Assembly (NCBI GenBank): GCA_965116955.1
Contig: OZ220742.1
Location: forward strand, 3,038,542 to 3,102,541
Length of the DNA stretch: 64,000 bases
Direction: 5' to 3'
From: Thermoanaerobaculia bacterium
GTDB taxonomy: Bacteria; Acidobacteriota; Thermoanaerobaculia; Multivoradales; Multivoraceae
The translations under genes were made by a program, and so were the position numbers. The notes below the pieces were generated by a model. The model made no database searches and was not told where the DNA came from. It saw only the letters and a list, made by a program, of their open reading frames with translations. This document shows, in pieces, positions 8,897-38,595 of this stretch. Within the stretch, counting starts at the first letter, position 1. Each line of letters opens with the position of its first letter.

Positions 8897-10084
8897 ATGC
8901 TCCGTTCCGCGATTCCCGCGCCGCGCCGCTGCTCTTCTTCACGCGACACGATCCTCTGCTTCGTTGCCTTCTTCATTGCCCTCGCCCTGGTCGCCGGGAC
9001 CGTGTCGGCAGCCGAGGACGAGGAGGTCCGTCTGGACGCGATCGAGCTCCCGGCCGGATTCGACGTGGCCGTGTTCGCCTCGGGAATCGACCTTGCGCGG
9101 TCCCTTGCCCAGAGCCCCTCCGGAACAGTCTTCGTCGGCACCGGCGGGCTGCGGCAGAGCGACGCAGTCTACGCGGTCGTGGACCACGACGGTGACGGCA
9201 GGACGGACCGGCGCTACGAGATCGCCGCGGGCCTGAACCGGCCGAACGGCGTCGCGTTTCACGACGGCGACCTCTACGTCGCCGAGATCAACCGCATCGT
9301 GCGTCTCGACGACATCGACAGCCGCCTCGACTCGCCGCCGAAGCCGGTCGTGGTTACCGACGACCTGCCGGACAGGAGGCATCACGGCTGGAAGTTCATC
9401 CGCTTCGGCCCTGATGGCCGGTTGTACGTTCCGGTCGGCGCGCCGTGCAACATCTGCGACGAGGGCGATCCCTTCGCAACGATCCTGCGCCTGGACGACG
9501 GCGGTGCCTATGAGGTCGTCGCTCGCGGCGTGCGCAACACGGTCGGCTTCGATTGGCGTCCAGGCACGAACGAACTCTGGTTCACCGACAACGGCCGGGA
9601 CATGATGGGCGACAACGTGCCGCCCGACGAGCTGAACGTCCTGACCGAGGACGGCCAGCACTTCGGCTACCCGTATTGCCACGGGCAGGACATCGCGGAC
9701 CCGGAATTCGGTGACCGGAAGTCCTGCGCGGACATGGTGCCGCCGGCGCTCGATCTGGACCCGCACGTGGGCGCCATCGGCATGCGTTTCTACCGGGGCG
9801 ACGCCTTCCCCGAGCGCTACCGGGGCCAGATCTTCATTGCCGAGCACGGTTCGTGGAATCGCAGCGAACCGATCGGGTACCGGATAGTCGTGGTCCACCT
9901 TGACGGAGACGGCCAGCCCCGCGAGTACGAGAAGTTCGCCACTGGCTGGCTTCAGGGCAGCCAGGCGTGGGGCCGGCCCGCCGACGTGATGGAACGTGCC
10001 GACGGGTCGTTGCTCGTCTCCGACGACATGCGAGGCGTGATTTACCGCATCGTCTACAGCGCTACATCCGGCGCCGGAGAGTAG
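8897..10084 (+). CDS. PQQ-dependent sugar dehydrogenase, tandem paralog (no C-terminal extension)
   Basis: Shares the same motif set as the upstream paralog. ATG at 8897 is preceded by an AGGAG RBS. Has a signal/TM segment FVAFFIALALVAGTVSA. Confidence 0.8.
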   Translation: MLRSAIPAPRRCSSSRDTILCFVAFFIALALVAGTVSAAEDEEVRLDAIELPAGFDVAVFASGIDLARSLAQSPSGTVFVGTGGLRQSDAVYAVVDHDGDGRTDRRYEIAAGLNRPNGVAFHDGDLYVAEINRIVRLDDIDSRLDSPPKPVVVTDDLPDRRHHGWKFIRFGPDGRLYVPVGAPCNICDEGDPFATILRLDDGGAYEVVARGVRNTVGFDWRPGTNELWFTDNGRDMMGDNVPPDELNVLTEDGQHFGYPYCHGQDIADPEFGDRKSCADMVPPALDLDPHVGAIGMRFYRGDAFPERYRGQIFIAEHGSWNRSEPIGYRIVVVHLDGDGQPREYEKFATGWLQGSQAWGRPADVMERADGSLLVSDDMRGVIYRIVYSATSGAGE

Positions 10085-10088
10085 GGAC

Positions 10089-11348
10089 GTGCCGGCGATC
10101 GATCCGGCCATCGTCGAGGCGGCGCGCGGCCGCTACGACGCGGCCCGTGCGGCCGGACTCAGCCTCGACATGACACGGGGCAAGCCGTCGCCGGAGCAGC
10201 TCGCCAGGTCCCACGGTCTCCTGCGGGCAGTCGACCGGGAAGACGATCGGGCCGCCGACGGCACGGACTGCCGCAACTACGGCGGCGACCCGCGCGGCCT
10301 GCCGGAGATGCGGGCGATCTTCGGCGAGATCCTCGAGGTCGATCCGGACCTGGTCTTCGTCGGCGGCAACGCAAGCCTGCAGTGGATGCACGATCTGGTC
10401 GTGCAGGCGATGCTGGTCGGCGTGCCGGGCGGCGATCCCTGGGGCGGACCGAGACGGTCGACGCCGGTGAAGTTCCTCTGCCCCTGTCCCGGCTACGACC
10501 GCCACTTTTCCGTGCTGGAGCGCTACGGCATCGAGATGCTGCCGATCGGGATGGGCGACGACGGCCCGGACGTCGACGAGATCGCACGCCTTGCCGGCGA
10601 GGACCGGAACGTCAAGGGGATGTTCTGCGTGCCTCGCTACAGCAATCCGACCGGCGCGACCTACTCGGACGACGTGGTCGAGGCGATCGCCGCGATGCCA
10701 ACCGCGGCGCCGGACTTCCGCGTCATCTGGGACGACGCCTACGCCTTGCACGCCTTCGAGGGGGAGCCGGACCGGCTGGCGAACCTCTACGACCGTTGCG
10801 CCGCTCACGGCCACGGGGACCGACCGTTCATCGTCACCTCGTTCTCGAAGGTGACCTTCGGCGGCGCCGGTCTGGCCGCGGTAGCCGCGAGCCCCGCGAA
10901 CGGCGAGTGGATCCGGAGTTTCCGCTCGATCCAGACGATCGGACCGAACAAGCTGAACCAGCTCGCCCACGCCCGTTTCTTCGACGGCGGCCTCGCCAGC
11001 GTCCGGGAGCACATGCGGGGACACGCGGAGCTGATCCGGCCGAAGTTCGAGACCGTGCTGCGCGTCCTCGACGAGTCGCTGGGCGGCCTCGGCGTCGCGA
11101 CCTGGAGCCGGCCCCGGGGCGGCTACTTCGTGAGCCTGGACACGGAGCCCGGCTGCGCGCGGGCGGTGGTCGAGATGGCGGGCCGGGCCGGGGTGAAGCT
11201 GACGCCCGCCGGCGCTACCTTCCCGTACGGCGTCGATCCGCGGGACCGGAACATCCGCATCGCGCCGACACTGCCGGGTCTCTCCGAGATCGAGACCGCG
11301 ACCCGGCTGCTCGCCGACTGCGTCGTGCTGGTCAGCGCCGGCCAGTAG
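10089..11348 (+). CDS. PLP-dependent aminotransferase, class I/II fold
   Basis: SFSK PLP-lysine motif (FIVTSFSKVTFGGAGLA), NPTG motif and ~420 aa length. GTG start inferred. Confidence 0.7.
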   Translation: MPAIDPAIVEAARGRYDAARAAGLSLDMTRGKPSPEQLARSHGLLRAVDREDDRAADGTDCRNYGGDPRGLPEMRAIFGEILEVDPDLVFVGGNASLQWMHDLVVQAMLVGVPGGDPWGGPRRSTPVKFLCPCPGYDRHFSVLERYGIEMLPIGMGDDGPDVDEIARLAGEDRNVKGMFCVPRYSNPTGATYSDDVVEAIAAMPTAAPDFRVIWDDAYALHAFEGEPDRLANLYDRCAAHGHGDRPFIVTSFSKVTFGGAGLAAVAASPANGEWIRSFRSIQTIGPNKLNQLAHARFFDGGLASVREHMRGHAELIRPKFETVLRVLDESLGGLGVATWSRPRGGYFVSLDTEPGCARAVVEMAGRAGVKLTPAGATFPYGVDPRDRNIRIAPTLPGLSEIETATRLLADCVVLVSAGQ

Positions 11349-12689
11349 CTAGTCGATGTAGCCGAGGCTCTTCAACTGGCGGACGTCCTCCTCGCTGAGG
11401 ACGGTGCCGCTCTTCGCCTCGTACTTCGGCAGGTCCCGGTACCAGTTCACGAGACGGCGGCCGAGCGGCGGCACCAGGTCGACCGGCGGCGCGGGCAGCG
11501 GCCGCTCCTCCTGGGGGTCGGCGGTGAGATCGAAGTAGACGGTCTCCCGCTTCGAGAAGTCGTGCAGGACCTTGGCGCCGTCGAGCTCCATGCTGATCTG
11601 CAGGGGGTCGTCGTAGGGCGCGTTGCGGCGCGACCTCGCCAGCAGGGCGCTGTGCTTGTCGCCGATGACGTAGCGGGGACGCGCCTCGCCGGCCGGCTCG
11701 TCGCCGATCGGAACGAGGCTCCGTCCCGCGACGTCGGCGGGGCCTTCGAGCTCGAGCAGGTCGAGCACGGTCGGCAGAACGTCGACCACGCCGACCGCGG
11801 CGCTCACCCGCCGGCCCTCGGGAATCCCCGGGCCCGCGAGGATCATGGGTATGCGCGCGTTGGGCCAGTGGACGTTCTTGCCGTGTCCCCAGTACCCGTG
11901 CTCGCCCATGCTCTCGCCATGGTCGCTCAGGAACAGGGTGTAACGGGGGCCGGCCAGCAGTTCGTCGATCGCCTCGGACAGTCTGCCAAGCCAGTGGTCG
12001 ACGTAGTTCACTTCCGACTGGTAGCGCCAGCGCCGTTGCCAGCCGCCGCTGCGCTGCTCGCGGGGCGGCTGCGGGGGCGTGAAGCCCCTGCGTTCCAGGT
12101 AGGGGCTGTGTGGATCGGAGAAGTGGACCCAGAGGAAGAGGGGGCGCCCGCGCCGCTCCTCATCGCTGTCGCGGCGGCGCAGCCATCGCTCGGCGGCTCT
12201 GGCGATGTCATCGGCGTGGCGCTCCATCACGCCCACCGCATTCCGCGCTTCGGTGAACTCCTCGTCGTAGTGATCGAAACCGCGGTGCAGACCGACCAGG
12301 TCGGAACGCAGCGTCCAGTTCGAGATGAACGCCGCGGCTTCGTAGCCGGCCCCGCCCAGAATCTCGGCCAGGACGGGGATGTCGGCTCGCATCCGCTGGG
12401 CGTTTCGCCGCGCCCCGTGGGTGGGCGGGTAGAGGGAGGTGAAGATCGAGGCGAAGGCCGGTCCGGTCTTGCCGATCGTGGTGTGCGCGTCCTCGAACAG
12501 CACGCCCGCGGCGGCGAGGGCGTCGATTGTCGGCGTCGTGGCCGTCCCGCCGCCGTAGGCGCCGAGCGCGTCGGCGCGCAGCGTGTCCACGGAGAGCAGG
12601 ACGAGGTGCGGCTGGTCGGCCGGCAACGGCGCGCAGAGCGCGACCGCCAGCGCCGCGGTGACGGGGAGTCGTCGTCCGGCGAAGGTCAC
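11349..12689 (-). CDS. sulfatase-like hydrolase/transferase (alkaline phosphatase superfamily) with RR signal peptide
   Basis: LSVDTLRADALGAYGG metal-binding motif, WVHFSDPHSPY, SDHGESMGEHGYWGHGK. Start taken at GTG 12689 (VTFAGRRLPVTAALAVALCAPLPA signal), overlapping the upstream stop (GTGA). Confidence 0.7.
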   Translation of the reverse strand: MTFAGRRLPVTAALAVALCAPLPADQPHLVLLSVDTLRADALGAYGGGTATTPTIDALAAAGVLFEDAHTTIGKTGPAFASIFTSLYPPTHGARRNAQRMRADIPVLAEILGGAGYEAAAFISNWTLRSDLVGLHRGFDHYDEEFTEARNAVGVMERHADDIARAAERWLRRRDSDEERRGRPLFLWVHFSDPHSPYLERRGFTPPQPPREQRSGGWQRRWRYQSEVNYVDHWLGRLSEAIDELLAGPRYTLFLSDHGESMGEHGYWGHGKNVHWPNARIPMILAGPGIPEGRRVSAAVGVVDVLPTVLDLLELEGPADVAGRSLVPIGDEPAGEARPRYVIGDKHSALLARSRRNAPYDDPLQISMELDGAKVLHDFSKRETVYFDLTADPQEERPLPAPPVDLVPPLGRRLVNWYRDLPKYEAKSGTVLSEEDVRQLKSLGYID

Positions 12690-19131: not shown

Positions 19132-19211
19132 TTGCGGTCTCCTTGCAGTGGCGAGAGTCCCGTATTCTGCCCTGCCTTCGGCAGGAGGGTCGGATACCAT
19201 CGCGGACAGCG

Positions 19212-19730
19212 ATGGGCATGAAGAAGGAACGGTCGGCGACACGACCGGGTTCATCCCGGAAGGGGAAGTACGCGGGCCTGTTCCGCAATCCACGGATCCG
19301 AACCCGGTCCTCGGCGGCGCGGGTGTCCGAGGCCGCGCGTGCCCAGAGTCCGGGCCCGCCCGGAAGCCCTCGTAGCCGGTTGCCCGGGCCGATTCAGTTC
19401 GTGCTGAAGCTGGCAGGATCCTGGCGTCTGAGTCAGGATGAACTTGCCGGCCTGCTTGGATTCGGCCCGGGAGACGCAGCCCACGCGGCGGCGCTGCTGG
19501 CGGGAAGAGCCGAGCTTCACGGCCGGGATGTTCGCGACCGGATCGCCCACCTGTTCCGCATAAGAGAGACGCTCTATTCGCTCTTCCGGGACCTGGAAGT
19601 CGAGAACGAGTGGCTGCGAGAGCCCCACGAGCTCCTTGCAGGCAAGTCGCCGATGTCGTTGATGGTCGGCGGCTCGATGGAAGACCTGCTCCTGGTCAGA
19701 GAGTACGTGGACGAGGTCGCCGGGTCGTAG
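19212..19730 (+). CDS. Xre/ParS/MbcA-type antitoxin (DUF2384 toxin-binding domain); start uncertain
   Basis: C-terminal ENEWLREPHELLAGKSPMSLMVGGSMEDLLLVREYVDEVA matches the DUF2384 antitoxin signature. It precedes the RES gene by 3 nt. Alternative GTG start near 19392. Confidence 0.7.
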   Translation: MGMKKERSATRPGSSRKGKYAGLFRNPRIRTRSSAARVSEAARAQSPGPPGSPRSRLPGPIQFVLKLAGSWRLSQDELAGLLGFGPGDAAHAAALLAGRAELHGRDVRDRIAHLFRIRETLYSLFRDLEVENEWLREPHELLAGKSPMSLMVGGSMEDLLLVREYVDEVAGS

Positions 19731-19733
19731 ACC

Positions 19734-20354
19734 TTGCTTGATGAGCTGCCTACCCAGAGGAGCACGCGCAGGGTCTTCCGGCTGGCACGGGACCCGACGC
19801 TCGACCTCCTGACCGCACTCGGCCTCGACGCCGGGGCAGAGGCGGAGGTGAGAGAGGCGTTGGCTGCGATCCGCGGCGCAGCGTCTGCTGAGGAACTCTG
19901 CGAAGCGGTCTTCAGGCCCAAGCGACGGCTGCCGAGACGCACCCGCTACTCCGACGGCTCCTTTCCGGTCTTCTACAGTTCGCTGGAGCCTGAGACTGCT
20001 GAAGCCGAGATCAAACACTGGTTGCCGACGCTCCTGGGAAGGCCCGAGAAGCCCCGAACAGCGTACTACCGGCGTCTGGACTGCACGTTCTCGGGAAGCG
20101 AGAAGGACCTTCGGTCGAAGGCCTCCGAATGGCCGGACCTCGTCCACGAGACCGACTACACCTTCTGTAATCGGCTCGGCGCTGAGGCGCGTGAACTGGA
20201 AATCGATGGCTTGGTGGCTCCCTCGGCACGGCATGCAGGCGCAAACGTGCCGATCTTCAGGAGAGGGGCGATCGTGGAGGCGGAGTTGGGAGATGCGGTC
20301 GCCGTGACTTACGATCCGGCTTCGGGTGCCGTGAGCTTGACTGAGGGTTTGTGA
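19734..20354 (+). CDS. RES-domain toxin (MbcT/ParT family, NAD+-targeting)
   Basis: ~200 aa with spaced Arg...Ser...Glu (RTRYSDGSFPVFYSSLEPETAEAEI). Immediately downstream of the DUF2384 antitoxin, the canonical Xre-RES arrangement. Confidence 0.75.
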   Translation: MLDELPTQRSTRRVFRLARDPTLDLLTALGLDAGAEAEVREALAAIRGAASAEELCEAVFRPKRRLPRRTRYSDGSFPVFYSSLEPETAEAEIKHWLPTLLGRPEKPRTAYYRRLDCTFSGSEKDLRSKASEWPDLVHETDYTFCNRLGAEARELEIDGLVAPSARHAGANVPIFRRGAIVEAELGDAVAVTYDPASGAVSLTEGL

Positions 20355-20425
20355 GGTCAGAGCCGGAGGTGACACGGTGGGCTTTCGGGCAACCCGTTTC
20401 GACGATCTCGGGGAGGGTGTGAGGT

Positions 20426-23400
20426 GTGAGCGACGCTGATGGCGAGCGCAAGGCCGGCGCGCCCTCGCCGGGGACATTTGGTGAGTGGGTCGGAGGGGAA
20501 TCCGAGGAGGTTCCGGCACCTTCCGACCCGCAGGATGCTGAGGTTGTGCTGGGCGAGGGGTGCGCCTCCTTGCCCGAACGGCTACTGCTCCATCATGCCG
20601 AGGGGAAGGTGCTCTTCCTGGCTGGAGCGGGTGTCTCAATGCCTAAGCCGGCCTGCCTGCCGAGCTTCAGGGACTTAGTCCTGAAGGTGTACAAGCAACT
20701 CGGTGATCCGGTACTGCCCTTTCTTGAAGCGCCTGCGGGAGACAGGGACGAGTTACCAGAGGGGCCGCCCCTTACTCCAGAACAGAAGGCGGAAGTCGAG
20801 AGCTTCGAGAAGCGGCAACTCGATGTCGTGTTGGGAATGCTCGAACGCCGGATTGACGGTCAGCAGACGGAAGAGAGCCGAATGCGGCAAGCAGTGGTCA
20901 GGCTGCTACAGCCGGATCCGCCTGCCGAGTACGCCGGGATTCACCGGGATCTGCTCCGGCTCTCCGATCGTGGCGGCGTCACTGCGATCCTGACGACGAA
21001 CTTCGATCTCCTGCTGGAGGCGGCTGGTAGAGAAGCCAAGTGCTCCGTCGAGAGTCTAGCGCTCGGCGCCATTCCGAGGCCGTCACTACGACCCTCGTTC
21101 AGCGGAGTGCTGCATCTCCATGGCGCTCTTCGCCCAGACCGGAGCGGTATTCCCGACTTGATCCTGACCAACAGGGACTTCGGTGAGTTCTACCTGCGCC
21201 GGCGAATCGTGCCGGACTTGCTGTACGACGCGGCACGTATCTTCCACCTCGTTCTCGTGGGCTACACGGCGAACGATCCTCCTGTTCGCTATCTCCTGGA
21301 CGCGATCTCGGCCGACGCGGCTCGGTTTCCCGACTTGAAGGAGCGGTTCATCTTCGTACCGTTCAAGGGAAACGAACCGGACCAGACGGAACTCGCAGAC
21401 TGGAAGGGGCGCGGCCTGACGCCGATCCCGTATCCGCGGGCGGATAGCCACCGGAAACTGGCCTTCACGCTCGAAACGTGGGCCAACCTCTTCGGGAAGA
21501 CGCCGTCACTTGACGGCGGGCACGAAACGGTGACCGAACGGCGAATCCGCAAGACGCTGGAGCGGATCACGGAGGCGCCGCTCAACGAGGTGTCAGACGA
21601 GGATCGGAGTCTCTTCGACCACCTGATTCGGCGGGAAGTCCACACTCGACGCGCAGAGCTTGCCAGTCGCCTGGGAGAGCTCCGCAGGGACTACGAGTGG
21701 TTGGATCGGATACTGGCTGTGATTCGAAGACCGATCAATCGGAGGGACCAAGACACTAGGTCACTCGCTCCACCGTCAGGCGAGATTGAACGCGAGGCGG
21801 CGCACTGCGTGCGGAACTTCGTGCTGAAGCGGCTTGAGGAACGGGCCACGATCAATTGGGCTCGTGAACTGCCGGCCCTCGATCGTGCCAGCCGTCGCGG
21901 GCTGCAGCGACTACTCTCCAACAGGGCGAGCTGGGGAGAACGGCTGTCGGAACCGTGGTTCAAGGCATGGCAGTTGGTGGAGAAGAGTTGGTGCGCCCCT
22001 GAGTACGCTGATCGGGAAGAGGCCTTGACGAGGGTCTGGGAGATCAAGGAGCGGCTTGAGCGTGGGGACCGGTCTCTTGCCCTGGCGGAGAAGATGGCTG
22101 AGTTCGTGGCGCCGTGGCTGCGACTGGATGACCCGGTACCGGTCATTGAAGTGCGAGGAGTGAAGAGCCCTGAGCCGCCGGTCTGGGGCCACCTCTTTCG
22201 GGCCGAACTCGGGAGCGTTGCGGTGAGCGAACTTCATCACATCGACCTCAGTATCGTCTCCGAAGTCGAGTTCCTGTCGTTTCTGGTCGGTTCGCTGGAG
22301 GCGTCCGTCCGTCGAGGTCTCGACTTGGCGCGGTACATCGGTTGGGAGGGCGACTTCCGGTTCCTGCGTCTTGGGGGATTGTTTCGCGTCAGTTTGGTTC
22401 GTAGCGCTGCCGGAGACGAGGAGGATCCGGATTTGTGGGGTGTCGCGCCTTCCGTCAAGCTTCTCCACGCTGCGGTCGAGCGTCTGGCCGAACTCGATCC
22501 TGGTGCCGCCTCAAGAGTGGTTCGGCGCTGGCTGCACACCGAGTGTCCGGTGCATCGGCGGCTCTGGGCCGCGTTTGCCCTCGACGAGCGGCTAGCGAGT
22601 ACGCGCGAGGTCGGGGGTTTGCTGCTCCGTCTGGACCATTGGGAGTTCTGGGCCAGAGAAGTTTGTCCCGAACTGGCGGAACTGCGCCTTGGTCGCTTCA
22701 ACGATCTCGATGCTGAGACCCGGGCAGAGTCGCTCGCCCGCATTCGGCTGGGCCCGCCGCGCGACTACTGGGTTCGGTCCACTGACAGGAAGCGGGCCGA
22801 AGCCTGGAGCCTTGAGCTCGCTGTCCGCGAGATGGAGCGCGTCCGCAACGCTGGAGTCGAGCTACCGGCCGAGCACGAGAGGTGGCTGGAAGCCGAATTG
22901 AAGAAGCACCGTGATCTTGAGACTGACGACAGCGGGCGCCCACTCGTGGAGGACCTGGAACCTGAACGTGCGGAGGTGCAGCCAGACCGGGAGCTGGACA
23001 GCTATACCGGCGGCGCTCTGCTAGTCGAGTTGGAGCAGCGGCTGGCCTCGGAGGAGCCCTTCTACAGCGGGGCCGCTGGTATCTGGCTGAAAAACAATGC
23101 GGCCAGAGTCCTGGTCGCGATGACTGAGGAGGCTGACGGTGTCCTCGATTCCCCTCACCTCTGGAGGGCGTTCGCGGAGCAGCACCGCCCGCCACGTAGC
23201 GACGATCCGGAGGGCTCCCTGCGCGAGGCCGCCGCTGAAGCAACAAAGGTGCTGGATCTCGTCGAGACTCTCAGTGACGAAACGCTGGCCAAGATTGTCA
23301 AGGAACTCGTCCGCTGGTGGATGAAGTGGGAGTCTCTAGCGAAGCCGGACGGGCAGGCTCGGCGTGTGTGGCTGCGCCTATGGCCTCACGCGGTGGACCG

Positions 23401-24427
23401 GACGATCGCAAGCTCAAACGCCATGTCGTTCAAGACCGAGATGGCCAACACGCCGGCCGGAGATCTCGGCCGGATCGCCTGGCGGTTCGCGCACCATCTC
23501 GGCCAGGAAGGTCGGTTGTCGGATGACCGCGATTTCGCTCGGATCGTCGCCGCGATCCTGGAGGCGCCCGGTCGGGCCAGACCTCTGGGTTTGGCGTTCA
23601 TGGCCAGTGGGGTTGCCTGGTTTCTGCAAGAGGACCAGGAGTGGGCTGAGCGACACTTGGTGGGACCGCTCATGGAGTGGTCCGATTCGGCCGTTCCCCT
23701 TTGGGAATCTCTGTGCAGTTTCGGGTTGCGCTCGGGGATCCCGAGGATTCTCGCTGCCAAGGCCGTGGAGCTCCTGGAACGGAAGGAGGAACCCAAGCTG
23801 ACCGCGGGATCCCGGCAGCGGCTTGCGTCGGCGCTCGTGGTCGATTCTCTGCGCGCCTTTTTCCACGGTAGCGAACCGGTGGTTGAACCGGTTCAGTTGA
23901 AGCAACTGATTAGTCGAATGGACGGAGAGCTTCGGAGCGTGTGTGCCGCTGCGCTCTGGCGCAGCTTGACGGCCCGCGGCGACGGATCGACGAGCCCGGA
24001 AGAGGCTTTCCGCCGGGCGGTGTCGCCGTTCCTCAAGCGCGTCTGGCCGCAGGAGTTGGATCTGGTTACGCGGGGCGTCAGCCACTCCATGGCGAGAATC
24101 CCAGCGGCGAGTCGGGGAGAGTTCATAGGAGCGGTTGAGGCTGTCGCCAGATTCCTTGTCCCTGGATCCACAGGGTCGCGTCACGACTATGGGCTCTATG
24201 GACAAGAGGACGGCGAAGAGCGCTTGGAGATCATCGTCGATAGCCCGCAGAAAGCGGAGGCACTGCTTCGTCTTCTCGACTTGACGGTCGGGGGCGGGGA
24301 AGGCGTGACGACTCCGCTGGGCCTTGATGAGCTCTTGGCGCAAATCCGTGACGTAGCGCCGACTCTTGTCGAACGCTCGGAGTTCGTCCGCCTGACAACG
24401 CAGGCACAGCGGAGCAGGTTCGAGTAG
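20426..24427 (+). CDS. 1333-aa SIR2-like (SIR2_2/DHS-like NAD-binding) domain protein with ~900-aa alpha-helical C-terminal region (defense-associated sirtuin-like)
   Basis: N-terminal KVLFLAGAGVS...ILTTNFDLLLE...VLHLHGAL...LVLVGYTANDPPVRYLL matches the SIR2_2 pattern, including the Asn and His equivalent to ThsA/DSR catalytic residues. GTG start with a GGAGG RBS 9 nt upstream. The rest is helical, Trp/Arg-rich, with no motif recognisable by eye. Confidence 0.75.
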   Translation: MSDADGERKAGAPSPGTFGEWVGGESEEVPAPSDPQDAEVVLGEGCASLPERLLLHHAEGKVLFLAGAGVSMPKPACLPSFRDLVLKVYKQLGDPVLPFLEAPAGDRDELPEGPPLTPEQKAEVESFEKRQLDVVLGMLERRIDGQQTEESRMRQAVVRLLQPDPPAEYAGIHRDLLRLSDRGGVTAILTTNFDLLLEAAGREAKCSVESLALGAIPRPSLRPSFSGVLHLHGALRPDRSGIPDLILTNRDFGEFYLRRRIVPDLLYDAARIFHLVLVGYTANDPPVRYLLDAISADAARFPDLKERFIFVPFKGNEPDQTELADWKGRGLTPIPYPRADSHRKLAFTLETWANLFGKTPSLDGGHETVTERRIRKTLERITEAPLNEVSDEDRSLFDHLIRREVHTRRAELASRLGELRRDYEWLDRILAVIRRPINRRDQDTRSLAPPSGEIEREAAHCVRNFVLKRLEERATINWARELPALDRASRRGLQRLLSNRASWGERLSEPWFKAWQLVEKSWCAPEYADREEALTRVWEIKERLERGDRSLALAEKMAEFVAPWLRLDDPVPVIEVRGVKSPEPPVWGHLFRAELGSVAVSELHHIDLSIVSEVEFLSFLVGSLEASVRRGLDLARYIGWEGDFRFLRLGGLFRVSLVRSAAGDEEDPDLWGVAPSVKLLHAAVERLAELDPGAASRVVRRWLHTECPVHRRLWAAFALDERLASTREVGGLLLRLDHWEFWAREVCPELAELRLGRFNDLDAETRAESLARIRLGPPRDYWVRSTDRKRAEAWSLELAVREMERVRNAGVELPAEHERWLEAELKKHRDLETDDSGRPLVEDLEPERAEVQPDRELDSYTGGALLVELEQRLASEEPFYSGAAGIWLKNNAARVLVAMTEEADGVLDSPHLWRAFAEQHRPPRSDDPEGSLREAAAEATKVLDLVETLSDETLAKIVKELVRWWMKWESLAKPDGQARRVWLRLWPHAVDRTIASSNAMSFKTEMANTPAGDLGRIAWRFAHHLGQEGRLSDDRDFARIVAAILEAPGRARPLGLAFMASGVAWFLQEDQEWAERHLVGPLMEWSDSAVPLWESLCSFGLRSGIPRILAAKAVELLERKEEPKLTAGSRQRLASALVVDSLRAFFHGSEPVVEPVQLKQLISRMDGELRSVCAAALWRSLTARGDGSTSPEEAFRRAVSPFLKRVWPQELDLVTRGVSHSMARIPAASRGEFIGAVEAVARFLVPGSTGSRHDYGLYGQEDGEERLEIIVDSPQKAEALLRLLDLTVGGGEGVTTPLGLDELLAQIRDVAPTLVERSEFVRLTTQAQRSRFE

Positions 24428-24470
24428 GGAGGCTGGCCCTGCCGGCGGCACGCCTCCTCACCAGGGCCCG

Positions 24471-25382
<912 letters not shown>

Positions 25383-31885: not shown

Positions 31886-32300
31886 GTGACGGAGGCGGCC
31901 GGACTCTACGTCCACATCCCGTTCTGTTCGGCGATCTGCCCGTACTGCGACTTCGCGGTGGTGCGTGGAGGCGAGACGGATCGGGAGCGGTTCGTTGCCG
32001 CTCTTGACAGGGAGATCGAGGAACGTGGTTCAAATGCGGATGAAGGCGGATTCGCCGGCGGGCGGGCCGGTCTTCGAGGCTGCCGGGTTCGACACGGTGT
32101 ACTTCGGGGCGGTACGCCGTCGGCATTGAGCCTCGAGCAGCTTGGGGCGATTCGGCGGCGGTTGGTCGGGACGTTCGCGATCGATCCGGAGGCTGAGTGG
32201 CCGATCGACGTGAATCCGGAGGATGCGTCGGCTGAGGCTGGCGGGGTGGCGGGAGCTTGGCTTCGACCGGATCAGCCTGGGGCTGAAGGCTCTGGACGCG
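31886..32300 (+). pseudogene. degraded duplicate of the hemW 5' end (radical-SAM CX3CX2C region), about 90% identical by eye to 38686-39100; frameshifted and truncated
   Basis: Nucleotide-level alignment by eye with the intact hemW start: same YVHIPFCSAICPYCDF block, about 1 substitution per 10 nt, a 1-nt deletion near 32110. Homology ends at about 32290, where a transposase fragment begins. Confidence 0.7.
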
Positions 32301-32641
32301 CTGCGGACATCACCTACATTCCGGTCCGTTCAGGCTTCCTGTACCTGGTGGCGGTGATGGACGCCGGGATCAGAATCATGATGGACGGCCGCGGCCGCTT
32401 CTTCGACAACATCTTCATCGAGCGCCTCTGGCGCTCCCTCAAGCACGAGGCGGTCTACCCGCACGAGTTGGCCTCGGGCCTCGAGGCCCGAGGCATCATC
32501 GGCGGATGGATGGCCTTCTACAATGACGAAAGGCGGCACACGGCGCTCGGCCGTAGCACGCCTGCCGAGGCACACCGCCGACTGATCGGCATTCCGCAGA
32601 ATCGACAGTTTTCCACAGCCCCGGCGGCGGCTGCGGCGTGA
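32291..32641 (+). mobile_element. IS3/IS481-family DDE transposase (rve integrase core) remnant, 5'-truncated and internally deleted
   Basis: DITYIPVRSGFLYLVAVMD (first catalytic Asp region) is fused directly to C-terminal FDNIFIERLWRSLKHEAVY...YNDERRHTALGRSTPAE. The middle of the core is missing. Confidence 0.6.
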
Positions 32642-32746
32642 TCAGACCATGAAGCACACTCTTAGTTAGCTCCGCCCCGAAACTGTCCAAAAGAACCGGG
32701 ACCACCTCTAAACGACCCGGGTCTCATAACGGATCCAAGTCGCTCG

Positions 32747-35700
32747 CTACTGATCTGGGACAATACCAACATTCCCTGCTGACGACATGAACAAAGTGCC
32801 AAAGGTCCCTCTATCCGACTCCAATCCTCCTGGTCTCAATGCCTCTCTACTGCCGAGTTGATCTTCCGGGATGAAGCCGGACGCAGCCACATTCTTCGCA
32901 CCATCGATCCAAAACCAGGCACCTGGCTTCAAGTTCCTGACCTCTAACCTCCCGCCGCGGTAAGCGCCGGTCCTCCTGAAGCAGAACGCTCTTTCGATCC
33001 GGCCGCTCACCGTGCCCGTTGGATCAGCGTAGAAAGTGTTCCAGCTATGAGTGTTCCCACAGACGACCTTGACTCTCACCGGTTTCCCCGGATCTGCCGC
33101 TTCTCCTACGAAACCTCCGGCACCGCCCCAATACGGCGCTACGTACAAAGGATCCTTCTGTTCCAGCTCCTTGCTGTGAACAATGATGGCCGACACTCCT
33201 GAAACATGAGTGAGAAAACTAGCATATCTTCCAACATCCGTTTGGACCGCGTTCGGAACGAACGCCGGCACATCCCCATCAAGATGATCCTTGCAGACAA
33301 GAGGAGCCACGGCCACTCCGTTCTTCGGGGTCTGAATCCAGTACCAGCCGTTGTCTTGAATGCCAGCAAACGAAACAGTGCCGCGTCGGGCACGACCCTC
33401 CCGGTCCCGGCAAAAAGGCAGGTCGACCAACCTGACGATCATTCGTTGGCGATTGTCGCCAATGAACTCGTCTGAGACGTGCCTCCGAAAACCACAAGAT
33501 ACCGTGACTTCGGCAGAGGTGTTCCCGCCTTCCGGCCTGATGACGAATCCGCCGTTACCCCTCCAATAAGGAGTCACATGCGCCGTGCGACATTCCGAAG
33601 TGGCATAGACACCATCGTCGTCCTCCTCGTGATCAGTTGGCGGCAAAGGCGGAAGAGGATCTCGCTCAGGGGGCAATGGACGCGGAACTGCTGGGGGAGA
33701 GCCCTTGATATGACCGAAGATCGTCAAGTTCCATGAGTTCAGGGTGGAGGCGGCATCGGGATCATGGCGTTCATCGCGAATACGAAGTCGCCAAACACCG
33801 TTGGCAGTCTCCCCAATGTGCCTGGCGCTGCCTGTTCGCAGAAAGCCGTCGACCGCGACTTCAGGAGGATAGCCGATGTCAGGTTGCAGTTTGACCGGAA
33901 CGGTGAGGACCGAAACGGCGCCTGAGGGAGACTCGAGTTCCATGCGAAGGTGGCGGAGAGTCTCTGACTGGAGCTCCATCTCGATTGCAACGAACTCTAT
34001 AAAATCAATGCTGGAGTCCGCGATTGTGATCGTGTTTACAAGACCGAACGCAGAATCGCGATTCGCCGTATCGCCCAGTGGAAGAAAAACGCCCGGAGTT
34101 GGAGCGACCCCGATGTCCGCATTGGGAATAGTGAGACTGAGATTGTCATTGGAAGAGTAGGTGCCCTCGATCATCGCGCCCACACGGCCTCTGCGCTCCC
34201 AGTCCTCTGCCAGTTCGATAGCTGCTTCTAGATCGACAAGGCCGTAGCCGTACTTGTGGCTGAACCGGTACTGTTCGGACGGCGAGCCATACTTTCCTGC
34301 GCCTACAGCCCAGTTACCGTCTACCAAGCCGGCCTGCGTGGCCGATCCTGCGAGAATGAGCCGCACGTCCCTCCACATACACCGATGGCAAGCCTGGCGA
34401 ACGAGCGCGGCTACTCCCGAGACGAGCGGCGCCGATCCTGAGGTGCCGTTGAATGTCTTCACATACCTACTGTAGGGCCATGTCGTCATCAAAGCCGGAT
34501 CAGGGGCAGGGGGATCGACATCAGAGCCAGCGTGTGGGTCCTTCTGGGAAGGTGCACAGAGAAGAAGATTGGAGCCGAACTGCGAATAGGATGCTACTTC
34601 TCCGTCTTCTCCTACAGCGCAGATGGCCGCCACTCCATAGTAACTCGCCACCTCACTCAGGTTGGAGTAGGCCAGGTCCGCCGCACCCGCCCGATCGTTG
34701 CCGCCGGCAAACACGTAGAAGACACCCTTCCCGCCATAGCCCCGGGACACACCGAGGTCAATCGCCTTGCGCCAGATAGCATCGGACAGTGCCGGACCCG
34801 TAAATCCGATCCGGCCAGGACCCCAACTGTTGTTGGAAACCGCAGCTGTGCGAACGTTAATCAACATCGACTCTGCAGCGCCGAGGGCTGTAGAATTGGC
34901 ATCGAGATAGTTGACGCCGAATAGTTTGGCCCGAGGTGCAACACCTCGGCTTCCGAAGGAGTTGTCTCGAGCTGCGATCAGGCCCGCGACCTGTGTGCCG
35001 TGATTAGCCCATAAGCCGAGCAGATTGCCGTCGCCACTGTAGTCTAAGCTCAAGTCTTTTTCGACGTTCTGAACGAGGTCCGCGTGCTGCAGATCGAGAC
35101 TGTCATCCACTACTCCTACCAAGATTCCCTCGCCTCTATACGTGTTCCAGGTGTCACCCACGGAGATATCAATGCCAGATCCGGTATTACTCAAATGCCA
35201 CGCGCAGCCCGCATAGGGATCCGAGAGAAGTGTGGGCGGGCACCCGTCAAGGAACCGTTGGGAAACATCTACGATGCCCAGAATCGCGTAGTAGTACTCC
35301 CGTCCAACGCTTCGGGGGAAGACCCGCACGGAGTAGGCGCCGGCGTCAAGGAGCGCCGTAATCGTGAATCCGCTCGGACCTTTGTGCCAAAAAGGTTGGT
35401 CGTAGTGAACACGACCAACGGGGCGACCAACGGAGTCGGTCATCACGGCATCCACGACGCCTCCGTGAGAAAAGCCCCTAATGAAGACTGCTTCCCTTTC
35501 GGTTAGGATGAACTCGTACCGAGTACCAGGTCCAACTGCTCTCGTCCTACCGACGAAAGGGCGCCCAAAGTAGCCGAAGAGCGTTCCCATATCCAAAGTG
35601 CGAGAGGCAAGTTCGAGGTTCTGGGCAGTCATATACACAACGGTTGGATACGCATTCTCGGCTCCGCCAGTAGTCCCACCTCTCCTAAGACGCAAAAAAT

Positions 35701-36913
35701 ACGTACCAGGCGCGAGCTCACCGTACAAGTACGGTCTGCCATAGCTAGATGAGAACAAATCAGATTCGCCTCCTAAAAGAGCGTTCTGGTCCTCGTCGTC
35801 GGCCAAGGAGTCTGCTGCCGGGCAGCAGTCGCTTTCGGAGTAGACTGCAATCCTCATACGTGCCCGATTCCATGCACTAATCAACACGGCTGTCTGCTCC
35901 TCGATGACGAAGCGGAACCATTCATCATCAAGTCCGAACTGAACCTCCACCGGCTTTCCGTCCACCAACTTGATGTGGTTCAGCATCGAGCCTGCGGACG
36001 TGTTCATTGCCGGCACATCGAAGTAGAGGTCCCCAGGCCGATCGGAATTTGTATCACACTCGGCCTCCTCTGACGGAAAATCCGGAAAGTCCCGCCAGGT
36101 CAGGTCGGCATGACCGAACTCGTAGATCCAAACGGTGTACGCACCTGGACGAGATGCGGGTGCATCGGGATCGGACGCAACCTGAAAGTGAAGAGTCCCC
36201 GTGAAAGAACCCGTGGTTTTGAAGTAGAGGAGGGCGTCGTTGTACTCGCCGTCAGGGACCCGCGCGTCAAAGATGGGAAGTGATAGACTCAGAGGTGGCG
36301 GAGGAGGAATGGCGGGGTCTGGAGCCTCGAGTATGTTCCATTTGAGGACTTCCGGCAGTGAGAGGCCGAGCCTGCCTGTTGTCATGATTGCGAGGCATCG
36401 GGTTCCGTCGACGTCAAACTGATAGTGATCGACATCGCTCGAAGAAGACAAGAATCCTGCAATGGGAACGCCAATTGGAACCGGAGTGGCATTGCGAATG
36501 TTGGCGATGTATTGCTCCAGTTCTGCCGGCGGAGGGAGAGTCTCCGGGAGGCCGGCGGAGTCGCCTGGCGTTGTCCGTGCAAGAGTGGACCAGGCGCCGG
36601 AGCCAGAACCGGATATCGCCCGAACCTGGACGCGATACTCGATCGCATTCTCTAGGCCAGATAGAAGCTCGTACAGGACGTTGCCATGCGTGCGGTTTCC
36701 TACGCCAACGATGTGTGTCCAGTTCGTACCGCTATCGGACGAGTACCGAAGTTCATGTGTGAGATTTGCTTGATCAGGCGTAGTCCACGTGACGGAGAGA
36801 GACCGCTCACCCTTCCAAAGCTCGACATCAGTGGGTGGTGGCGGCTGAGTACGAGCCAGAGATGCGGTCATTGTGAACATGATGAGGAGGAGGCAGATGA
36901 GCTTTGGCATCAC
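32747..36913 (-). CDS. 1388-aa secreted multidomain S8 subtilisin-family peptidase (signal peptide, FN3, about 3 PPC-like domains, S8 catalytic domain, P-domain-like, 2 C-terminal repeats)
   Basis: Catalytic triad motifs VGVVDDS, NHGTQVAG, GTSGSAPLVSG. FN3-like N-terminus. D.Y.F / D.WFRF PPC-like repeats. Repeated PYW.G.GGFV C-terminal modules. Visibly lower GC and different codon usage than the flanks. Confidence 0.8.
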   Translation of the reverse strand: MMPKLICLLLIMFTMTASLARTQPPPPTDVELWKGERSLSVTWTTPDQANLTHELRYSSDSGTNWTHIVGVGNRTHGNVLYELLSGLENAIEYRVQVRAISGSGSGAWSTLARTTPGDSAGLPETLPPPAELEQYIANIRNATPVPIGVPIAGFLSSSSDVDHYQFDVDGTRCLAIMTTGRLGLSLPEVLKWNILEAPDPAIPPPPPLSLSLPIFDARVPDGEYNDALLYFKTTGSFTGTLHFQVASDPDAPASRPGAYTVWIYEFGHADLTWRDFPDFPSEEAECDTNSDRPGDLYFDVPAMNTSAGSMLNHIKLVDGKPVEVQFGLDDEWFRFVIEEQTAVLISAWNRARMRIAVYSESDCCPAADSLADDEDQNALLGGESDLFSSSYGRPYLYGELAPGTYFLRLRRGGTTGGAENAYPTVVYMTAQNLELASRTLDMGTLFGYFGRPFVGRTRAVGPGTRYEFILTEREAVFIRGFSHGGVVDAVMTDSVGRPVGRVHYDQPFWHKGPSGFTITALLDAGAYSVRVFPRSVGREYYYAILGIVDVSQRFLDGCPPTLLSDPYAGCAWHLSNTGSGIDISVGDTWNTYRGEGILVGVVDDSLDLQHADLVQNVEKDLSLDYSGDGNLLGLWANHGTQVAGLIAARDNSFGSRGVAPRAKLFGVNYLDANSTALGAAESMLINVRTAAVSNNSWGPGRIGFTGPALSDAIWRKAIDLGVSRGYGGKGVFYVFAGGNDRAGAADLAYSNLSEVASYYGVAAICAVGEDGEVASYSQFGSNLLLCAPSQKDPHAGSDVDPPAPDPALMTTWPYSRYVKTFNGTSGSAPLVSGVAALVRQACHRCMWRDVRLILAGSATQAGLVDGNWAVGAGKYGSPSEQYRFSHKYGYGLVDLEAAIELAEDWERRGRVGAMIEGTYSSNDNLSLTIPNADIGVAPTPGVFLPLGDTANRDSAFGLVNTITIADSSIDFIEFVAIEMELQSETLRHLRMELESPSGAVSVLTVPVKLQPDIGYPPEVAVDGFLRTGSARHIGETANGVWRLRIRDERHDPDAASTLNSWNLTIFGHIKGSPPAVPRPLPPERDPLPPLPPTDHEEDDDGVYATSECRTAHVTPYWRGNGGFVIRPEGGNTSAEVTVSCGFRRHVSDEFIGDNRQRMIVRLVDLPFCRDREGRARRGTVSFAGIQDNGWYWIQTPKNGVAVAPLVCKDHLDGDVPAFVPNAVQTDVGRYASFLTHVSGVSAIIVHSKELEQKDPLYVAPYWGGAGGFVGEAADPGKPVRVKVVCGNTHSWNTFYADPTGTVSGRIERAFCFRRTGAYRGGRLEVRNLKPGAWFWIDGAKNVAASGFIPEDQLGSREALRPGGLESDRGTFGTLFMSSAGNVGIVPDQ

Positions 36914-37431
36914 ATCTTGTCCAACTGAAGCAGCCAGTTCGGCGACGCAATGGCGACGCCCTCGTGTATCGCGAGCTTGTTGGCCAGATCGAGGGTTTCG
37001 TGAATCGTGGGCTTTGTGGGGATAATGAAACTATTGGGCATCCAGTCGAGAGCCTTGGCATCAGATAGTCCATGAGCGATGAGGAACGCACGGACTCTTT
37101 CGTTGGTCCAGTCGGCGTCCAACACGAGAATGACCCCTCCGACTAACGCTCTCAGGTTTCCCGCAGAGTCCTGAAAGACGGGATTCGAACGTGAAGGCTC
37201 TTTAGTAGGCGACGTGGCGCTCGGATGAGCTGAAAGGGGGGCGTCCGTTGTTGCTTTGGCGATTCTCAGCTTTCCGTTCTTCGATTTCTCGACGAGGTAG
37301 TCCCTTTGTAGAACGATGCGGATCTGACGACTACCGTCATAGTAGAAGTATGCAGGATCGTGTGGCTCTTGTGCTAAGAGTGGGTTTTGAAGGAGGGAGA
37401 GGCTCAGGATTGCGAGGGGCAGTACCTTCAT
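36910..37431 (-). CDS. small secreted protein, C-terminal part resembling subtilisin propeptide/inhibitor I9 fold; translationally coupled to the S8 peptidase (ATGA overlap)
   Basis: Signal peptide MKVLPLAILSLSLLQNPLLAQ. C-terminal LVLDADWTNERVRAFLIAHGLSDAKALDWMPNSFIIPTKP...LANKLAIHEGVAIASPNW fits the I9-like pattern (inference). ATG at 37431 is preceded by a GAGGAAA RBS. Confidence 0.5.
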   Translation of the reverse strand: MKVLPLAILSLSLLQNPLLAQEPHDPAYFYYDGSRQIRIVLQRDYLVEKSKNGKLRIAKATTDAPLSAHPSATSPTKEPSRSNPVFQDSAGNLRALVGGVILVLDADWTNERVRAFLIAHGLSDAKALDWMPNSFIIPTKPTIHETLDLANKLAIHEGVAIASPNWLLQLDKM

Positions 37432-37699
37432 ACGTCTTTCCTCGGCCACCAGAACGGTGCTCAGCGGGTTCATCGAGCAGCGTTGGTTGGGAGTGTGCGC
37501 GGAGAGCGAGTGGTGCAAGGGTTGTGTGTCCGCGAGGATCCGATGTCAGGCAACGGGCGGTGGCATGCTCGTTTGAGGCGAGTGTGGCACATTTATGCGA
37601 AAGAAGCGCGAAGGAAAGGGCGTGAAAGGCGACTGGAGTGTGAATAGAGGGCGCACGTTGTTGGTCGCTAGCCTGAAGCTGGTCGGTCGGCGACCCAGG

Positions 37700-38595
37700 C
37701 GGGGCAGGCAGGCCTCGAGGCCGCGGAGCCAAGGGTCTGCCGGGTCCTTCGCGAGCGGTCGGTGGAGGCGAGCCCAACGAGAACGTGCCGCAAGTAGGAC
37801 GAGCGCGGAAGCGAGAGGATCGCAAAGGCAGGGCCCGCAGCGCCGTCACGGCACCCACTGGAGCAGGCGCCGCCTGGCAGCGAAGCTCGGCGTTTCCCAG
37901 ATGACGATCGCGCGGCTGTGGCGCAAGCACGGTCTGCGGTCTCATCGGCTCCATCGGTACATGGCGCCCAACGACCCGGACTTCGAGAAGAAGACGGCTG
38001 AGATCATCGGCCTGTACGTGAATCCACCCGTCCACGCGGCGGTGTTCTGTGTGGACGAGAAGACCGCGATTCAGGCTCTGGATCGCAAGGACCCGGTGCT
38101 GCCGCTGTCCCCGGGTCGTGCAGAGCGTCACGGCTTCGAGTACCGGCGCCACGGGACGGTGTCGCTGCATGCGGCGTTCAACACGGACACCGGCGAGGTG
38201 GTGGGCGAGACGGCGCCTCGGCACACGTCCGAAGAGTTCGTGGCCTTTCTCGGCGAGTTAGTGGCTCATCACCCCAAGGGGCAGGAGATCCCGTCATCGT
38301 GGACAACTTCTCCGCGCACAAGACCGCCAAGGTGGCCAAGTTCCTCGACGCTCATCCCAACGTCCACATGCGCTTCACGCCAACCTACTCGTCCTGGCCT
38401 AATCAGGTCGAACTCTGGTTCGGGAAGATCCAACGCGATGTCATCGCCAGGGGCGTGTTCACGTCCGGCGCCGACCTGCGACGAAAGCTGATGCGTTACG
38501 TCCGCGAATACAACAAGAAAGCCAAGCCCGTGAAGTGGAAATACACCAATCCGTCAAGACGACTTAGTGCCGAAACCCAAGTTACAGTCGACTAG
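37700..38595 (+). mobile_element. IS630 (Tc1/mariner)-family transposase pseudogene: degenerate N-terminus and a 1-nt frameshift near 38285
   Basis: LGVSQMTIARLWRKHGL HTH, FCVDEKTAIQALDRK (first D), then a frame change between HHPKGQEIP and VIVDNFSAHKT (second D), then FTPTYSSWPNQVELWF (E region). Confidence 0.65.

Follow-up and report, generated by a model that had tools for sequence, protein, structure and literature searches.

The locus described here lies in a 64,000-nucleotide (nt) stretch of the genome of a Thermoanaerobaculia bacterium (GenBank assembly GCA_965116955.1, contig OZ220742.1, positions 3,038,542 to 3,102,541 of the forward strand), denoted below as the window. Three co-directional genes, all on the + strand, encode an Xre-type antitoxin, a RES-domain toxin, and a 1333-amino acid (aa) protein with an N-terminal SIR2 domain, the latter being a divergent member of the Dsr1 family. 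Their open reading frames (ORFs) occupy positions 19143-19730, 19734-20354, and 20426-24427; the first two ORFs are 3 nt apart and the last two 71 nt. An annotation made from the DNA letters alone (the sequence-only reading) had already described this order and spacing, both of which are confirmed by the ORFs, and had proposed that the three genes form a NAD+-targeting defense module. Comparison with related genomes leads to a different description: the three genes are probably two autonomous modules of known kinds, a toxin-antitoxin pair and a Dsr1-like protein, which have become neighbors in a Thermoanaerobaculia/Holophagales-like lineage, at a site of the chromosome that is variable.

The antitoxin ORF, 195 aa in its longest form, matches the Pfam family Xre_MbcA_ParS_C (PF09722, DUF2384) at aa 144-192 (E 2.3e-8, 34.3 bits vs. 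a cutoff of 24.5). An Xre-like helix-turn-helix (HTH) domain (PF20432) is weakly detectable (15.6 bits, cutoff 25.8), and the NCBIfam model Xre_ParS_antitoxin yields 24.7 bits at a cutoff of 90. Conservation is limited to the last ~118 aa, with an N-terminus that varies among relatives. The sequence-only reading had let the gene begin at the TTG codon 19143. This start is rejected as unlikely because it lies only 11 nt from the start of the neighboring EVE-domain gene and straddles the boundary of the insert; the public gene call begins at ATG 19212 and yields 172 aa. ATG 19212 is most likely the correct start, with some uncertainty about the true position. In the called protein, the initial ~55 residues (window 19212-19380) are of low complexity, rich in Arg, Ser, Pro, and Gly, and unconserved among relatives; the variable, low-complexity N-terminal extension comprises 55-80 aa, and elsewhere the antitoxin of close relatives is annotated from a later start (108-128 aa).

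The RES toxin is recognized by the corresponding Pfam model with 63.4 bits (cutoff 23.2), and its catalytic-signature residues R71, E92, and S164 are, like R166 and N171, invariant among 21 homologues. It has no match in NCBIfam or PADLOC (PADLOC-DB from 2023). A single-sequence search of the PDB returned nothing; a profile search points weakly (E 0.0024) to 8qnq/8qnl, a RES domain-containing protein, as the closest solved structure. Relatives of the toxin are named ‘RES family NAD+ phosphorylase’ by their sources. Xre and RES genes are paired in every relative examined, inside as well as outside the clade to which the window belongs.

In the 1333-aa protein, the Pfam domain SIR2_2 covers aa 187-333 (E 4.5e-16), and the catalytic residues N192 (within the motif TTNFDLL), H230, and H232 are invariant or near-invariant in 30 homologues. 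All three domain assignments of the sequence-only reading (DUF2384, PF09722; RES, PF08808; SIR2_2, PF13289), including the conserved Asn/His, are recovered in this way by Pfam matches above the cutoffs, and the RES and SIR2 modules are both members of NAD+-consuming families. A PADLOC scan of the full protein finds Dsr1 (PDLC02183, E 1.4e-60). The N-terminal 405 aa alone match positions 56-294 of the PADLOC Dsr1 profile (E 1.9e-40), and the C-terminal 928 aa alone match positions 1019-1272 of PDLC02183 (E 2.3e-20) as well as PDLC04167 (E 2e-15). Since both halves match the Dsr1 model collinearly, homology spans the effector and the sensor. The earlier label ‘DSR-like’ was right in its sirtuin kinship but too vague, given that Dsr1 models are matched over both halves. 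The only NCBIfam match is the Dsr1 equivalog NF041818, which is reached with 276.5 bits at a cutoff of 1400; the protein is therefore a divergent Dsr1-family member and no equivalog of canonical Dsr1. Identification as DSR2, ThsA, or SIR2-HerA was considered and dismissed, as these yielded marginal matches to the SIR2 motif only. Sequence comparison brings up no solved structure: the single-sequence PDB search was empty, and the profile search gave short N-terminal SIR2-motif matches only. The AlphaFold2 (AF2) model of the C-terminal 928 aa (mean predicted local distance difference test, pLDDT, 85) is nearly all helical, and the predicted fold class, a helical solenoid, is clear. A Foldseek comparison of this model with the PDB retrieved generic HEAT/ARM solenoids only (CAND1, karyopherins) at template modeling (TM) scores of 0.15-0.3, and no specific relative emerged.

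The occurrence of the Dsr1-like protein was surveyed in one genome per GTDB species, yielding 384 relatives, the best 80 loci of which were inspected. In ~63 of these 80, the family is split into two genes for a SIR2 protein of ~400 aa and a sensor of ~910 aa, which overlap by 4 nt in 32 cases and by 1 nt in nine (e.g. L016:7974-9227 and 9224-11956). Both halves of a split example match the PADLOC Dsr1 model. The fused form is a minority, found in six loci and the window. The usual form of this subfamily is a pair of translationally coupled genes, effector and sensor, which is relevant to annotators and to the study of how the sensor controls SIR2.

The three genes constitute an accessory block (Table 1). 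A metagenome scan with the arginase gene retrieved one close relative (L091, Ga0209543_1002501); the other 79 loci show at most 64% identity and are non-syntenic. The gene order in L091 is the same as in the window, with genes for LepA (94% identical), arginase (88%), EVE (96%), DUF4097, and EF-P, and no Xre, RES, or SIR2 gene lies between arginase and EVE. At this empty site (L091:5040-5200), which represents either the ancestral or a deleted state, the arginase stop codon is followed by 24 nt including the ribosome-binding site AGGAGA and then by the EVE start. Because arginase and EVE are directly adjacent in this close relative, the block is accessory, as the sequence-only reading had suspected, and in the window it splits an apparent arginase-EVE operon. 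The EVE gene, considered as a further member of the module, was discarded as a core gene that adjoins arginase at the empty site. The sequence-only reading had named a DUF4097 gene on the upstream side and arginase and LepA on the other; the latter stands, but the immediate upstream gene is the minus-strand EVE gene, with DUF4097 one gene further out. The lower G+C content noted by eye is real and modest (0.641 in the insert vs. 0.694 and 0.664 in the flanks) and becomes clearer at third codon positions (GC3), with 0.73-0.78 in the three insert genes vs. 0.88-0.95 in the genes for EF-P, DUF4097, EVE, arginase, and LepA. No tRNA lies within 10-35 kb of the insert, its flanks show no meaningful repeat, and Rfam yields no family there; no integrase or transposase was found for it, and no mobility mechanism can be assigned. 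An inverted repeat between the convergent Dsr1-like and arginase genes, not reported by the consensus terminator scan, may, judged from its sequence, act as a bidirectional terminator.

Table 1. Features of the accessory block and its immediate flanks (window coordinates)
Feature	Position	Strand	Basis and remarks
EVE-domain gene, 161 aa	18646..19131	-	Pfam EVE E 1.9e-60; ATG 19131-19129 read directly; core-genome flank, outside the insert
Accessory insert, ~5.3 kb, three genes	19147..24465, ends approximate (~5 nt)		Junction alignment with L091; GC3
Xre/MbcA/ParS-type antitoxin, 172 aa	19212..19730 (longest ORF from TTG 19143)	+	PF09722; conserved core ~19377-19727
RES-domain toxin, 206 aa, predicted NAD+ phosphorylase	19734..20354	+	Pfam RES E 3.4e-17
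RES-Dsr1 spacer, 71 nt	20355..20425	+	GGAGG-like ribosome-binding site ahead of GTG start (sequence read directly)
Dsr1-like protein, predicted SIR2 NADase effector domain at the N-terminus, aa 1-405	20426..21640	+	Pfam SIR2_2; PADLOC Dsr1
Dsr1-like protein, C-terminal alpha-solenoid sensor region (predicted), aa 406-1333	21641..24427	+	PADLOC Dsr1; AF2 model; ~aa 500-1200 hypervariable
Inverted repeat GGAGGC...GCCTCC, candidate terminator	24428..24459		Read from sequence, between convergent Dsr1 and arginase genes
Arginase-family gene	24471..25382	-	ORF; syntenic relatives match Pfam Arginase; identity within the clade 88-96%; core-genome flank

The surroundings of the locus vary among close relatives and include other defense-type genes. 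Beyond LepA, relatives carry a type ISP restriction enzyme, or a PIN toxin-antitoxin system together with McrBC (L082:12918-16019; L088:10513-12624). A DEAD/YjiV_N/MZB helicase of ~2040-2066 aa takes the place of DUF4097 ahead of EVE in L002 (81-6197), L088 (1-4867), and L174 and L175 (1-5731).

In the loci examined, the association of the toxin-antitoxin pair with the Dsr1-like gene does not extend beyond this lineage. Flanking genes of the Dsr1-like loci were called by a heuristic, and local RES and Xre hidden Markov models (HMMs), built from one subfamily, were applied to every ORF in the six reading frames of the loci. Among the best 80 of the 384 Dsr1-like loci, RES and Xre genes were found by tblastn only in L001-L003. 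At the 77 others, which stem from many phyla, neither occurs within ~8 kb (tblastn; with the clade-built HMMs, nothing else at E < 1). When the two closest called genes on either side of these 77 loci (134 upstream and 135 downstream proteins) were scanned with Pfam, no family appeared in more than three loci, and those that recurred did not include RES. Among the neighbors, housekeeping genes are mixed with genes for restriction-modification, TIR, ParE, transposase, and integrase proteins. Viewed from the other side, all RES homologues of at least 67% identity with examined context reside at the same EVE-arginase site of the clade, most of them with a Dsr1 homologue and two without an intact one, and the four out-of-clade RES-Xre loci examined (L089, L090, L171, and L172; RES 53-57% identical) harbor no SIR2 gene. 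The trio is confined to one narrow clade (LepA 94-99% identical) and is always found at the same syntenic site in the fixed order RNase D, EpmA-like, EF-P, DUF4097, EVE, Xre, RES, Dsr1, arginase, and LepA. Since a single clade and a single chromosomal site are involved, the adjacency amounts to roughly one evolutionary event. The proposed three-gene defense module fails on the association across genomes by which the sequence-only reading itself had wished to judge it. A full-text literature search revealed no paper describing a RES-Xre-Dsr1 system.

In three of the four out-of-clade RES-Xre loci, a conserved Gly-rich protein of ~195 aa (55-59% identical) is encoded by an upstream gene overlapping the Xre start (L089:4787-5374, L090:4765-5349, and L172:4758-5354). 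This protein has no match in Pfam or PADLOC and is absent from the window. Its position suggests that, in this out-of-clade RES subfamily, the Gly-rich gene, Xre, and RES form a three-gene cassette.

Within the clade, the site occurs in several states. An intact trio is present in the window, L002, L081-L087, L174, and L175. In L001, an ISL3 transposase gene interrupts the Dsr1 gene (L001:9054-10307), and in L003, Dsr1 ends early, after ~603 aa, at an IS3-type insertion sequence (IS) element (L003:9865-11018). In L088, an unrelated 268-aa gene (L088:6725-7531), which has no match in Pfam, NCBIfam, or PADLOC and no similarity to Dsr1, has replaced Dsr1. In L173, EVE, Xre, and RES are followed by a 33-codon ORF (L173:7609-7710) and directly thereafter by arginase. 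This ORF carries a remnant of ~21 codons of the Dsr1 C-terminus, EVIVDTEEKAGALLRLLDLSV compared with EIIVDSPQKAEALLRLLDLTV in the window; tblastn aligns Dsr1 aa 1239-1288 in total (E 3.5e-7), of which only the second half, the remnant given here, is convincing. At least four independent events (deletion, replacement, ISL3, and IS3) have removed or broken Dsr1, and the RES-Xre pair is intact each time. The idea that the three genes are gained and lost together agrees with the empty site, which lacks all of them, yet Dsr1 alone is lost in L173, L088, L001, and L003.

This pattern raises the question whether the RES-Xre pair is a selfish addiction module that stabilizes the site and plays no part in phage defense, with Dsr1 as interchangeable cargo that landed or was retained beside it. 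Such a view accommodates the intact pair in every occupied state next to a downstream gene that has suffered deletion, replacement, or IS insertion, and the strong conservation of the Xre core, whose cluster at 90% identity contains 15 members vs. two each for RES and Dsr1. NatRT, a characterized RES pair, showed no phage phenotype (PMC11535050). Stand-alone RES proteins, however, do defend against phage (10.64898/2026.01.28.702374), and relatives carry type ISP restriction-modification, McrBC, and PIN genes around the locus. The selfish interpretation, which largely overlaps with that of two autonomous modules and differs only in denying a defensive role, appears possible, if somewhat doubtful.

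A further trait that separates the Dsr1-like gene from the pair is its hypervariable sensor. Identity to the window protein was computed in bins of 100 aa. Compared with L002 (LepA 99% identical), the SIR2 portion (aa 1-400) shows 84-90% identity, the sensor (aa 500-1200) 42-59%, and the C-terminal end 73-78%. For the more distant L001 (LepA 94%), the values are 67-85% for aa 1-400, 67-82% for aa 500-1200, and 73% for the C-terminal end. Xre and RES depart from the sensor pattern; Xre is 94% identical to that of L002 and 65-70% to that of L001. The sensor mosaic (window ~21900-24000) tracks neither Xre and RES nor the host. It suggests that alleles are exchanged by recombination, or that diversifying selection acts, in an immune sensor whose evolution is not coupled to the toxin-antitoxin pair.

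The same data bear on a possible housekeeping or regulatory role of the large protein, which would then be a sirtuin such as a protein deacylase and no immune NADase. Its location among core genes (EF-P, arginase, and LepA) and its conservation at one locus of the clade would fit such a role. Against it stand the matches to the SIR2_2 and Dsr1 models, with canonical sirtuins of the PDB matching a short N-terminal NAD-binding motif only, its absence from a close relative and repeated pseudogenization, the low GC3 and the hypervariable sensor, and the distribution of its relatives, which are scattered across phyla and in part lie near restriction-modification, TIR, transposase, or integrase genes. 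A housekeeping or regulatory function is highly improbable.

Enzymatic activities, trigger, and a role in phage defense can be proposed by analogy with what is known of the two families. RES toxins phosphorolyze NAD+ to nicotinamide and ADP-ribose-1''-phosphate. In the window pair, the C-terminal DUF2384 domain of the antitoxin would bind the toxin and keep RES inactive, loss of the antitoxin would result in NAD+ depletion and growth arrest, and the addictive pair would tend to persist wherever it has landed. In the Dsr1-like protein, the long C-terminal alpha-solenoid sensor would restrain the N-terminal SIR2 NADase as long as no phage protein, presumably a structural one, is bound; the released SIR2 domain would then hydrolyze NAD+, and the infection would be aborted or slowed. 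Dsr1 is described as a single-protein defense system that depletes NAD+ (10.1101/2021.12.14.472415). Dsr1 of E. coli reportedly responds to a major capsid protein of phage, and its sensor is a bent helical-repeat domain that Avs7 also possesses (PMC12803255). The RES toxins NatT and MbcT are NAD+ phosphorylases that produce nicotinamide and ADP-ribose (ADPR)-1''-phosphate (PMC11535050). NAD+ depletion mediated by RES domains, as in the stand-alone, phage-defensive aRES proteins, evades the phage NARP1 pathway (10.64898/2026.01.28.702374).

Several observations weigh against two autonomous modules. Co-directional genes with short spacers and no detected terminator-like site make co-transcription possible; the 71-nt spacer contains neither a promoter-like nor a terminator-like site in a consensus scan that is uninformative for this organism. 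Similarly lowered GC3 in all three genes and the lack of all three at the empty site fit acquisition as one block, and the three genes remained adjacent even as the identity of Dsr1 fell to 55%. Among the clade loci examined, no state with Dsr1 only was seen at this site. Moreover, a survey with HMMs from one subfamily, heuristic gene calls, and the best 80 of 384 loci could overlook remote RES types beyond the second neighboring gene.

The spacing, the shared GC3, the empty site, and the linkage maintained during Dsr1 divergence also speak for an operon-level composite, in which Xre would autoregulate a transcript that includes dsr1, or in which the two enzymes would be kept for their different products. 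By the first route, loss of the antitoxin during infection would derepress both NAD+ destroyers. By the second, SIR2 would generate ADPR and RES would generate ADPR-1''-phosphate, the latter being unusable for the NAD+-rebuilding NARP1 pathway of phages. As RES-type degradation evades NARP1, a benefit of carrying both chemistries is plausible. On the other hand, the linkage in one clade and at one locus counts as one event, the combination is absent from the 77 other Dsr1-like and the four out-of-clade RES-Xre loci, RES-Xre stayed intact through at least four events that removed or disrupted Dsr1, the mosaic pattern of the sensor disagrees with that of Xre and RES, and the RES-Dsr1 spacer is poorly conserved within the clade. 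An operon-level composite is unlikely on balance, and its fuller version, a co-transcribed, antitoxin-controlled coupling of two NAD+ destroyers (with ADPR and ADPR-1''-phosphate as products) that would be robust to NARP1-like reconstitution in this lineage, is distinctly unlikely.

The description as two autonomous modules in a small defense islet mainly serves as a correction, by which what is probably a neighborhood coincidence is kept from being cataloged as a new defense system. The locus also offers a natural series among close relatives, with empty, toxin-antitoxin-only, IS-disrupted, and intact states, which illustrates the fast turnover of a defense sirtuin, the mosaic diversification of its sensor, and the persistence of the adjacent addictive pair. 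Should the modules nevertheless cooperate, e.g. against NAD+-rebuilding phages, the series would provide a simple test case for lineage-specific, layered NAD+-depletion immunity.

Elsewhere in the window, a second and stronger low-GC region extends over positions 31886-38491 (GC 0.57-0.60 vs. ~0.69). It holds a gene on the minus strand (32747-36913) for a 1388-aa protein with fn3, subtilase S8, and P-domain regions, which is flanked by transposase fragments (rve_3, 31886-32641; a weak DDE_3 match, 37595-38491).

Both modules can be placed beside systems that are already characterized. Like DSR2, the large protein combines a predicted SIR2 NADase with a large alpha-solenoid sensor, as in a single-protein defense; unlike DSR2, it matches no DSR2 model in PADLOC, and no DSR2 structure is among the top 50 Foldseek matches in the PDB. 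With aRES (10.64898/2026.01.28.702374), the window toxin has in common a predicted NAD+-degrading RES domain in a defense context, but aRES stands alone with no operonic antitoxin, whereas the window RES has its cognate Xre. The type II RES-Xre systems ParST, MbcTA, and NatRT (Skjerning et al., 2019; PMC11535050) resemble the window pair in the antitoxin gene upstream of the toxin gene, the 3-nt gap, the DUF2384 domain, and the R/E/S residues of RES; the window pair deviates in scores below the NCBIfam subfamily cutoffs, a weak HTH, and the variable N-terminal extension of 55-80 aa in its antitoxin. In comparison with Dsr1 (Gao et al., 2020; Garb et al., 2022; PMC12803255), the window protein is very divergent (276.5 vs. 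1400 bits), and it is fused in a subfamily that mostly consists of two genes. It agrees with Dsr1 in the N-terminal SIR2_2 domain with its Asn/His, the long helical-repeat C-terminal sensor, and a size of ~1250-1330 aa, as well as in being self-contained, since the 77 Dsr1-like loci, most of them split into two overlapping genes, share no obligate partner gene.

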